DNA of 36,641 nucleotides from Candidatus Woesearchaeota archaeon (GCA_016180085.1 JACPBX010000010.1:1-36641); one strand, 5' to 3'; shown: positions 2,559-25,787, numbered from the stretch's first letter. The notes: generated by a model not told the origin, from the letters alone. A program made the numbers and translations.

Positions 2559-2725
2559 AGGAACCCTCCAACACGTTCGTTCCGTTCTAGTAAAATGCCC
2601 CCTATCAGTTGCTACCCACTAAAAATTATTGAACTTAACGTAGGCAGTTTCGAGAAGTTGTTGCCACTCTTAAAATTATGATAACGAGTAGCAAATACGC
2701 GTATTCACTAGTTAAGTTTAAATAG

Positions 2726-2748
2726 TTAAACAGTTTAACTGTTAAACT
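2726..2748. promoter_or_regulatory. Triple alternating half-site operator of the AbrB/PIN module
   Basis: GTTAAAC-a-GTTTAAC-t-GTTAAAC between TATA (TTTTAAATA 2717-2725) and RBS GGTGA. Confidence 0.65.
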
Positions 2749-2759
2749 GGTGATGTGAA

Positions 2760-3026
2760 ATGGAGGAAGAACTGGTTAAAATGTCGCCAAAGGGACAGCT
2801 TGTAGTGCCTAAGGAAATAAGGCTTAGTGAAAGGTTCAAGCCAACCGACAGGTTTGTGGCTTTTGGCGTCAAGGGCGGAGTGCTGTTCAAGAAGGTAGCC
2901 ATACCTACCGTAAAGGCAGAATTTGAGTCTTTATCAAGAGAGATAGCCGAACAGTTTAAAGCCAGAAACGTCAAAGAAAAGGACGTTGAAGAGGCCATCA
3001 AATGGGCAAGGCAAAGACAACACTAG
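2760..3026 (+). CDS. AbrB/MazE/SpoVT-family antitoxin
   Basis: VKMSPKGQLVVPKEIR swapped-hairpin motif; overlaps PIN gene. Confidence 0.9.
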   Translation: MEEELVKMSPKGQLVVPKEIRLSERFKPTDRFVAFGVKGGVLFKKVAIPTVKAEFESLSREIAEQFKARNVKEKDVEEAIKWARQRQH

Positions 3027-20620: not shown

Positions 20621-21955
20621 TTACGCCTTTATTATCCCGTAACCGATCAATCTCCATCGGCTTCCCAGAAGCCTCGAGAGCGTGACCCTTGAGCCGGCTT
20701 CTGCGCACACCGGAAGCTTCAGCCTCAGCAGCACTGCGCCTTTCTTTAGTTCGGCAACAATGCCAACCGTGGCAGAGGAATTTACGTTAAGCATAAGCGT
20801 CTCGCCCTGTTTCATGGGCTCAACAACGAGCTCGTCCCTGGCGCCAACAACCCTTTCCAGCAGGTGAATCTCGGTTTTCAGCTCATGCCAGACCGGCGGG
20901 AGCTTGTCCGGAAGGCCAACCACTGTTCCTGCAAGGGTATCTGCCTTGACAACGCCAGGGTCAAGGGATGTCAGCATCCCGATAGAGCCGCCAGGAGAAA
21001 CAGCCTTAACGCTGCTGCCTCCTGTTACAAGGCCGACAAGCTTTGTCTGTATTGGAGTCCACGAGGACTTTCCTGCCTTTTCAGTTCTTCTGCCAGGCCT
21101 TATCTCGATAACCTGGCCAACTGAAAATGCGCCCTGCTTTACTGTGCCTCCGAGAACGCCGCCCTGCAATTTTTCCGGAAGCGTGCCTGGCCTGTTGATA
21201 TCGAAAGACCGCGCTACAAGCATCATGGGTTCGGCTTCCTTTTTCCGTTCAGGAGTTGGAATTGTTCTCTGTATTGCCTCTATCAACGCATCAATGTTTA
21301 TGCGGCGCTGGGCTGATATGGGTACAACAGGCGCTGCCTCATAAGGGGTTCCCTTTACAAACGCCTTTATTTGGTTGCAGTTCTCAACAGCTTCCTCGCT
21401 GCTAACAAGGTCTATCTTGTTCTGCACAATCACAACGTTCCTGATGCCGACAATCTGCAGCGCCATTAAGTGCTCACGAGTCTGGGGCTGCGGGCATTTT
21501 TCATTTGCAGCAATGAGAAGGAGGGCTCCGTCCATTATGGCTGCCCCCGAAAGCATTGTCGCCATGAGGCTCTCGTGGCCTGGGGCATCAACAAAGCTCA
21601 CTTTTCTTACGAGCGCGGTTTTTTCACCGCAACCGCTGTTGCCGCAAATATCCTTTGTTGTAAAGCAGGATGGCTCAGGGCACTTCGGGCACTTCCTGAA
21701 TTCGGCATCGGCGTAGCCAAGCCGAATGGTAATGCCCCTTTTGATTTCCTCGCTGTGCGTGTCAGTCCATCTTCCTGTTATGGCTTCAACCAGTGTGGTC
21801 TTGCCGTGGTCGACATGGCCAACCATGCCTATGTTTATTTCAGGCTGGACAGCTTCCTTTTTCTTCCCGCTTTCAATCTCCTTATCTTCTTCCGCAGCTG
21901 CCGCAGAAACTGAAGAAACCGCAGCCGATTCCGCTTTACTGGCTTTTTTAGTTAT
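20621..21955 (-). CDS. eif2g: Translation initiation factor 2 gamma subunit (probable ATA start at 21955)
   Basis: QPEINIGMVGHVDHGKTT, KRGITIRLGY, DAPGHE, NKID, RWRLIGYG; frame open upstream of ATG 21826 to a stop at 21958-21956. Confidence 0.95.
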   Translation of the reverse strand: MTKKASKAESAAVSSVSAAAAEEDKEIESGKKKEAVQPEINIGMVGHVDHGKTTLVEAITGRWTDTHSEEIKRGITIRLGYADAEFRKCPKCPEPSCFTTKDICGNSGCGEKTALVRKVSFVDAPGHESLMATMLSGAAIMDGALLLIAANEKCPQPQTREHLMALQIVGIRNVVIVQNKIDLVSSEEAVENCNQIKAFVKGTPYEAAPVVPISAQRRINIDALIEAIQRTIPTPERKKEAEPMMLVARSFDINRPGTLPEKLQGGVLGGTVKQGAFSVGQVIEIRPGRRTEKAGKSSWTPIQTKLVGLVTGGSSVKAVSPGGSIGMLTSLDPGVVKADTLAGTVVGLPDKLPPVWHELKTEIHLLERVVGARDELVVEPMKQGETLMLNVNSSATVGIVAELKKGAVLLRLKLPVCAEAGSRVTLSRLLGSRWRLIGYGIIKA

Positions 21956-22044
21956 TCAAACCACCAAGAACTTCGAAAACTTGGAAGGTATATAAAGTTA
22001 ATTGACTCAGACTTAACCGTCGAGTGCTTACTGGAAGTGCACAA

Positions 22045-25645: not shown

Positions 25646-25787
25646 GGCTGCCGTAGTGTAACGGTCCGCATGCGGCCCTGTGGACAATCTTTTTACTCGC
25701 CCACGGGCGAGCAAAAAGCTTGACCAAAAAACGTGCAACATCGTTGACGGTAAGGCTTAGGACGGGGTTCAATTCCCCGCGGCGGCC
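25646..25787 (+). tRNA. tRNA-His(GTG) with 69-nt canonical intron (25684-25752)
   Basis: G-1:C73, acceptor GCTGCCG/CGGCGGC, loop CTGTGG|A, BHB central helix CTGT/ACGG, T-arm CGGGG-TTCAATT-CCCCG; TATA at 25609-25617. Confidence 0.9.

Follow-up and report, generated by a model that had tools for sequence, protein, structure and literature searches.

The window analysed here, a stretch of 36,641 nucleotides, comes from a Woesearchaeota metagenome-assembled genome (MAG) of ~1 Mb and 83% completeness, whose closest relatives are groundwater “Candidatus Woesearchaeota” MAGs. Its minus strand carries a gene for the gamma subunit of archaeal initiation factor 2 (aIF2-gamma). The coding sequence as we propose it (20621-21955) comprises 444 codons counted from an ATA and ends in a TAA stop codon (20623-20621). 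The whole protein scores 637.7 bits against NCBIfam NF003077 (cut-off 315) and 627.5 bits against TIGR03680 (cut-off 514.5), and its translation contains both the G-domain Cys cluster CPKCPEPSC...C..C and a beta-1 strand with P-loop, QPEINIGMVGHVDHGKT, of which the P-loop GHVDHGKT occupies positions 21797-21820 (minus). The first ATG of the frame (21824-21826, minus) encodes the internal Met44 within the beta-1 strand. The NCBIfam aIF2-gamma profiles align from residue 32-36 of the ATA-started protein, that is, they begin 8-12 residues upstream of this methionine, so a start at Met44 would remove conserved N-terminal positions (profile positions 1 to ~10 of the family). Only a start upstream of the first ATG yields an intact beta-1 strand. 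The residues preceding Met44 form a Lys/Ala/Glu-rich N-terminal extension followed by the QPEINIG strand (21827-21952, minus; 42 codons without a canonical start); from the ATA through GGC (21829-21827), 43 codons contain no ATG, GTG or TTG.

The ATA proposed as initiation codon (21953-21955, minus) is the first codon after an in-frame TGA (21956-21958, minus) that it directly adjoins, and the frame reads GTG (21964-21962), GTT, TGA, ATA on the minus strand. The GTG is part of GGTGGT (21960-21965, minus), which we regard as Shine-Dalgarno-like from its conservation and from the enrichment of GGTG upstream of starts in this genome; counted differently, GGTGG (21965-21961) is followed by TTTGA (5 nt) and then by ATA. 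Further upstream lies a TATA box, TTTATATA (21989-21996, minus), which matches the TTTAWA that begins at -31/-30 from the start codon in leaderless genes of this genome. Adjoining it is AATTAAC (21997-22003, minus), an element present in most aIF2-gamma promoters of the family and possibly, by inferred function, a BRE. The spacer from the TATA box to the GTG measures 24 nt, placing the beginning of the box at -32 from GTG and -41 from ATA, and no upstream ATG was found in the ~90-nt intergenic region. An earlier, sequence-only reading of the window had pointed out the QPEINIG upstream of the first ATG, the open frame of 43 codons upstream of ATG 21826, the ATA at 21955 placed 5 nt past GGTGG, and the TATA box at 21996-21989. 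All of these are present, and the ATG in question is the M of QPEINIG-M-VGHVDHGKT, where a Met44 start would cut the beta-1 strand. Absent from that reading was the in-frame GTG within GGTGG, two codons before the TGA, which sits exactly at the leaderless start-codon position relative to the TATA box. The promoter AATTAAC-TTTATATA with its pyrimidine-rich 24-nt spacer (21966-22003, minus) retains ~80% identity across genera, in pairs whose aIF2-gamma proteins are only 66% identical (e.g. L006 vs. L020), a degree of conservation that exceeds the need of a core promoter alone.

Upstream of the first canonical starts in this genome, the first G of GGTG peaks at -12/-11 (16 and 18 cases), with 6 cases at -10. 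Under stricter filters (n = 46) it falls at -9 in 8 genes, at -10 in one, at -11 in 23 and at -12 in 14. The 3' end of the 16S rRNA is absent from the assembly; the enrichment of GGTG at -12/-11 marks it as a putative Shine-Dalgarno motif. An A/G change within GGTGRT would keep the pairing (A-U or G-U) with the usual archaeal anti-Shine-Dalgarno sequence. The first G of the aIF2-gamma GGTG stands at -10 from ATA, and the suggestion of the sequence-only reading that this register is the one used by other genes therefore holds only roughly: it lies within the range but is rare (1/46). The sole gene with the same register has the leader GGGTGGTTTGA followed by TTG, which is near-identical to that of aIF2-gamma; it encodes an AbrB/PhoU-like regulator (C42:38348-38363, plus strand) and has an alternative ATG seven codons downstream.

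TTTAWA peaks at -31/-30 from start codons (range -32 to -28), indicating that many genes of this genome are leaderless. Six other genes combine a TATA box, a spacing of 23-27 nt, GGTGR, and an ATG, GTG or TTG 9-11 nt past the first G, which suggests that a short-leader design is in regular use. One of the six lies in the window (2717-2762, plus strand) and the others on contigs C11, C43, C22, C40 and C36 of the same genome; their mRNAs are predicted to carry a ~10-nt leader with little beyond the Shine-Dalgarno sequence. For aIF2-gamma, the TATA distance and the GGTG position together predict a transcription start at 21966/21965, with the Shine-Dalgarno-like element at the extreme 5' end.

The 5' ends of aIF2-gamma genes were read in 40 related genomes and then across the whole family (25 species). 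The sequence “GGTGRTT TGA ATA” is shared with five other species, four of the same genus and one of another genus, and five more family members possess GTG-RTT-NNN-ATA, in which TTC, TGG, GCC, GTT or ATC replaces TGA. When 401 genomes of the order were searched for the pattern, one further gene emerged as the twelfth: G157 from another family, with GGTGATT-CTT-ATA. The GTG-N6-ATA architecture is thus found in 12 genes (this genome and 11 other species), six of which have the TGA. The remaining family members carry an ATG 23-26 nt past the same AATTAAC-TTTATAWA promoter, a distance that points to leaderless mRNAs in those species. The N-termini correspond, reading I-(T/A/V)-K-K in the ATA type versus M-(A/S)-(K/R)-K in the ATG type. 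In all relatives the frame is open from exactly the ATA, and length changes always comprise whole codons. Internal GTG, TTG or ATG codons occur within the extension in three of the six TGA-type species; they are unconserved, and the other three species, this genome among them, are free of such codons. L021 and L023 have their GTG 33-35 nt past the TATA box, a non-leaderless position, with the ATA kept and the Shine-Dalgarno-like element lengthened to AGGTGAT or AGGTGGT.

Some loci stand apart from this classification. The aIF2-gamma gene of L015 (G016:C80) shows GGTGA, 6 nt, and then ATC-CCA-AGA-AAA-AAA, which opens a Lys-rich extension resembling the MPRKK of relatives; an ATG immediately preceding QPEVNIG is its sole canonical start. 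The contig breaks off 32 nt upstream, leaving the promoter out of view, and the gene may have another non-canonical start. In a family member, at G022:C2:83915-85131, the aIF2-gamma match comes in two adjacent pieces, split at about residue 254/260, which suggests an in-frame stop or a frameshift. Heimdallarchaeota loci were left unclassified because the P-loop pattern did not match them.

In a maximum-likelihood tree, the ATA type makes up two clades, both supported at 100/100, apart from one nested ATG-type species in each: L011, sister to L010 (97/91 support), and L027, in clade B. The promoters of L010 and L011 are nearly identical, and the two genes differ by exactly 9 nt, GTGATTTGA, and by ATA versus ATG, which makes the ATA the positional homologue of the leaderless ATG. 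Both nested species have lost exactly the 9-nt GTGRTTNNN. Read on this tree, the ATG was regained twice, each time together with loss of the 9-nt leader. G157 clusters with ATG-type families in a quick tree, and the ATA design would either have arisen more than once or be old.

Constraint at the nucleotide level was compared in the 11 aligned genes with the GTG-N6-ATA architecture, G157 standing outside the alignment; the species are related and the counts hence non-independent, with other codons of the same genes serving as the control. All 12 genes share an identical ATA. Among the 11 aligned genes, no variation is seen in GTG or in the TT after R, and 10 have the G that precedes GTG; G157 also carries GTG, ATT and ATA. 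The triplet between RTT and ATA varies freely (stop, F, W, A, V, I, L). As to the control, none of the 10 invariant Ile columns uses a single codon, and only 3 of 186 invariant amino-acid columns do so. Isoleucine codon usage in this genome is 40% ATA, 37% ATT and 24% ATC. Such a distribution is what a Shine-Dalgarno core followed by a free spacer and a start codon would give; four ordinary codons do not fit it.

Starts at ATA, ATT or ATC are not general in this genome. After GGTGR, long open reading frames (ORFs) begin with ATG 32 times, and those three codons occur there at noise level only, with no sign of a general relaxation of start codons; aIF2-beta and aIF1 have ATG starts. We also sampled 80 aIF2-gamma 5' regions elsewhere in the phylum, in further families and orders; six were uninformative. 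An ATG was available in 68 and only a GTG or TTG in six, so that none of the 74 informative genes lacks a canonical start, and a phylum-wide trait is not seen. Taken together, these results mark the non-canonical start as specific to gene and lineage. A metagenome scan for the leader motif returned 48 matches, only one of them an aIF2-gamma (of the TGG type). In Methanobrevibacter and other Methanobacteriota (L041-L058, L074-L081), a GTG start 12 codons before GHVDHGKT, with no ATG upstream, is conserved in every aIF2-gamma locus whose 5' end is readable.

Several other explanations were considered and rejected. Assembly error or an indel is countered by the same sequence in independent MAGs from different studies. 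Recoding of the TGA was rejected, as TGA is a common stop codon here: of 714 non-overlapping ORFs no shorter than 150 aa, 265 end in it, it is the second most used stop in this genome, and it also terminates aIF2-beta at the normal length. No UGA suppressor tRNA was found in this 83% complete genome, where low-level readthrough may still occur. The candidate “tRNA-SeC(tca)” reported by ARAGORN -i proved to be a tRNA-Arg(UCG) whose intron position is ambiguous; the cloverleaf is of the normal 7/5 type and the variable loop short, and an intron-less homologue in a related genus, with the anticodon loop CTTCGGA, gives its identity. A +1/-1 frameshift from an out-of-frame TTG (21959) would run into a TAA after three codons, and a plausible slip site is absent. 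A predicted 5' hairpin of GGUGGUUU with AAGCCA is not significant (z = -1.1), and its partner varies among relatives.

Two neighbouring subjects deserve a record of their own. The tRNA-Arg(UCG) gene (C37:8638-8765 of this genome; L137:339-466) contains a 54-nt intron whose length and sequence differ between species. Parts of it (query ~35-90) match many genome sites across the genus, including the intron of the tRNA-His in the window (25682-25733), which suggests a shared or mobile family of tRNA intron sequences. The aIF2-alpha gene of this genome, outside the window (C23:20094-20880, minus; L135/L138), is without its first ~38 codons: the ORF begins with MIHISEV in the middle of the S1 domain, and the missing segment (MLLK..GFP..ELVFCTV.SVQSHSVFVKLEEYG) is present in all eight congeners. 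The 130 nt between the eS27 stop codon and the aIF2-alpha ATG are unrelated to the sequence of relatives, and the gap may be genuine, from truncation or rearrangement, or else an artefact of assembly.

Building on the observed sequence, its conservation and the homology of ATA with ATG, we consider it probable that aIF2-gamma synthesis starts at the AUA at 21955, positioned by the Shine-Dalgarno-like GGUGGU on a leader of ~10 nt. The promoter TTTATATA would start the transcript at about 21966/21965, giving an mRNA whose leader is only ~10 nt long and begins with GGUGGU (predicted 5' end 5'-GGUGGUUUGAAUAACU). This element, 4 nt before the AUA (5 nt counted from GGUGG), would place the small subunit and the initiator tRNA, whose anticodon would pair with AUA save for a mismatch at the third codon base. 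By an alternative route, the 5'-terminal GUG-GUU-UGA may be read as a two-codon mini-ORF whose termination feeds re-initiation at the abutting AUA; the sequence alone fits either this or de novo arrival. The outcome would be a deliberately weak start, presumably dependent on the start-codon strictness of the cell, and the AUA arrangement would replace the leaderless AUG of related species. Initiation at ATA had been put forward by the sequence-only reading, and the comparison argues well for it through 11 more species, the conserved ATA, its homology with ATG and the genuine stop upstream. The relatives neither all carry ATG nor show an indel restoring a canonical start, findings that had been named as fatal to the proposal. 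Against it stand the rarity of the -10 register (one of 46 Shine-Dalgarno-led genes) and AUA itself, an odd codon for an essential factor given how very weakly it initiates in those systems for which measurements exist.

A different account, which we judge unlikely, has the mRNA start leaderless at a 5'-terminal GUG (21964) and read through the UGA at codon 3, for example with a Trp-tRNA. The product would then be M-V-W-I-T-K-K, the ATA would simply encode an internal Ile, and expression would be lowered by the leaky stop. The position of the GTG speaks for this and against the AUA: it lies 24 nt past the TATA box, compared with 23-26 nt for the ATG of leaderless relatives, and the box at -32 from it is within the leaderless range of -32 to -28. 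In L021 and L023, however, the GTG is off the leaderless position. The GTG is invariant in the 11 aligned genes and present in G157, but the ATA, unlike all other conserved Ile codons, never appears as ATT or ATC, which readthrough leaves unexplained. It likewise leaves unexplained why both ATG reversions occurred at the ATA position together with loss of the GTG, and not by a change of GTG to ATG. The frame from GTG is open in six species, one of which has TGG in place of TGA, as a readthrough model also predicts, and in those six the GTG may be the real start; apparent G-GTG ORF starts are also found elsewhere in the order. Here and in five other species, by contrast, codon 3 is TGA, the second most used stop, and closes the frame, a suppressor tRNA was not found, and the intervening codon is free to vary. 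Far less probable still is that translation begins at Met44 (21826) or at a different near-cognate codon downstream of the ATA, leaving the upstream frame untranslated, or that the assembly is in error. Gene callers would pick the ATG at 21826, and half of the TGA-type species (3/6) do have some GTG, TTG or ATG in the extension; yet those internal codons are unconserved and are absent from this genome and two others, the frame opens at exactly the ATA and changes length by whole codons in all species, and both the conserved QPE(I/L/V)NIG and the beginning of the family profile lie upstream of Met44. The recurrence of the same sequence in independently assembled MAGs speaks against the error.

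An AUA start could, in addition, be regulatory. We hold it doubtful that the codon acts as in bacterial infC, where an AUU start is the precedent for start-codon autoregulation (PMC4705826): low stringency of start-codon choice or low aIF2 activity would increase initiation at AUA and the opposite conditions would reduce it, so that aIF2-gamma stays at a set level. This proposal would add to the AUA reading and not replace it. The weak start has been kept by selection in 12 species and swapped only for a leaderless AUG, and it is gene-specific, with plain ATG in aIF2-beta and aIF1 and no general use of ATA, ATT or ATC starts. On the other hand, rejection of non-canonical codons in archaea has been shown for aIF1 and not for aIF2-gamma (PMC6237735, PMC4705826), and statements in the literature that aIF2 is crucial for accuracy are general ones. 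A higher level of ternary complex might raise AUA use and so produce positive feedback, and most of the phylum manages without such a start (0/74 informative genes lack a canonical one). In a variant, free aIF2-gamma might block its own mRNA by binding the triphosphate 5' end at the Shine-Dalgarno-like element; PMC3936769 reports binding of Sulfolobus aIF2-gamma to 5'-triphosphate mRNA ends. Taken as a whole, the AUA with its minimal, Shine-Dalgarno-only leader might conceivably, though we give this little probability, be a sensor tying aIF2-gamma synthesis to the state of the initiation machinery. Its proposed inputs would be aIF1 stringency, the ternary-complex level, or aIF2-gamma on its own 5'-triphosphate end, and it would then be an archaeal counterpart of infC autoregulation that arose more than once in Woesearchaeota.

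To our knowledge, archaeal starts beyond AUG, GUG and UUG are hardly documented, and we know of none conserved on an initiation-factor gene. No account of archaeal aIF2-gamma with an AUA or other AUN start came up in our literature searches; near-cognate start sites seen by ribosome profiling in Haloferax were set aside in that study (PMC7261190). If the AUA is used, standard gene callers shorten an essential protein by 43 codons and remove part of its G domain in this genome and in the two relatives without a canonical start upstream, and likely in other TGA-type genes too. The repeated swap between a leaderless AUG and a short Shine-Dalgarno leader with AUA would offer a natural experiment on how far two archaeal modes of initiation tolerate a weak codon, and the gene is a candidate case of translational control for the factor that delivers initiator tRNA.

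Compared with known systems, the gene resembles infC in being an initiation-factor gene with a conserved AUN start behind a Shine-Dalgarno element, here an ATA in 12 of 12 genes that is forced by TGA in six. It differs in that IF3 itself rejects AUU and thereby closes the loop, whereas aIF2-gamma carries the initiator tRNA and the known rejecter is aIF1. The codon is AUU in a bacterial system there and AUA in an archaeal one here, and the infC start is widespread in bacteria while the AUA is limited to few lineages, and its regulatory role is putative. PMC6237735 and PMC3326321 cite autoregulation through start-site stringency for eIF1 (poor AUG context) and eIF5 (uORFs), likewise initiation factors of eukaryotic type whose own mRNAs have deliberately weak start signals. 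Those signals are a weak-context AUG or uORFs in a scanning system, unlike the near-cognate codon, Shine-Dalgarno-like element and very short leader seen here. The leaderless AUG genes of sister lineages share the promoter AATTAAC-TTTATAWA, the N-terminus (M/I-A/T/S-K-K) and a homologous start position; they have ATG 23-26 nt past the TATA box and no leader, whereas here the 9 nt GTGGTTTGA are added and ATG is changed to ATA. Archaea and bacteria also couple termination to re-initiation where a stop codon abuts a start codon, and here too a UGA directly abuts the next start with a Shine-Dalgarno-like element just upstream, but the upstream ORF would have only two codons, read from the mRNA 5' end, and the restart codon would be AUA. 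Methanobrevibacter, finally, provides the same gene with a conserved non-ATG start; its GTG is a standard alternative start codon, and no in-frame stop forces the reading, as the TGA does here.
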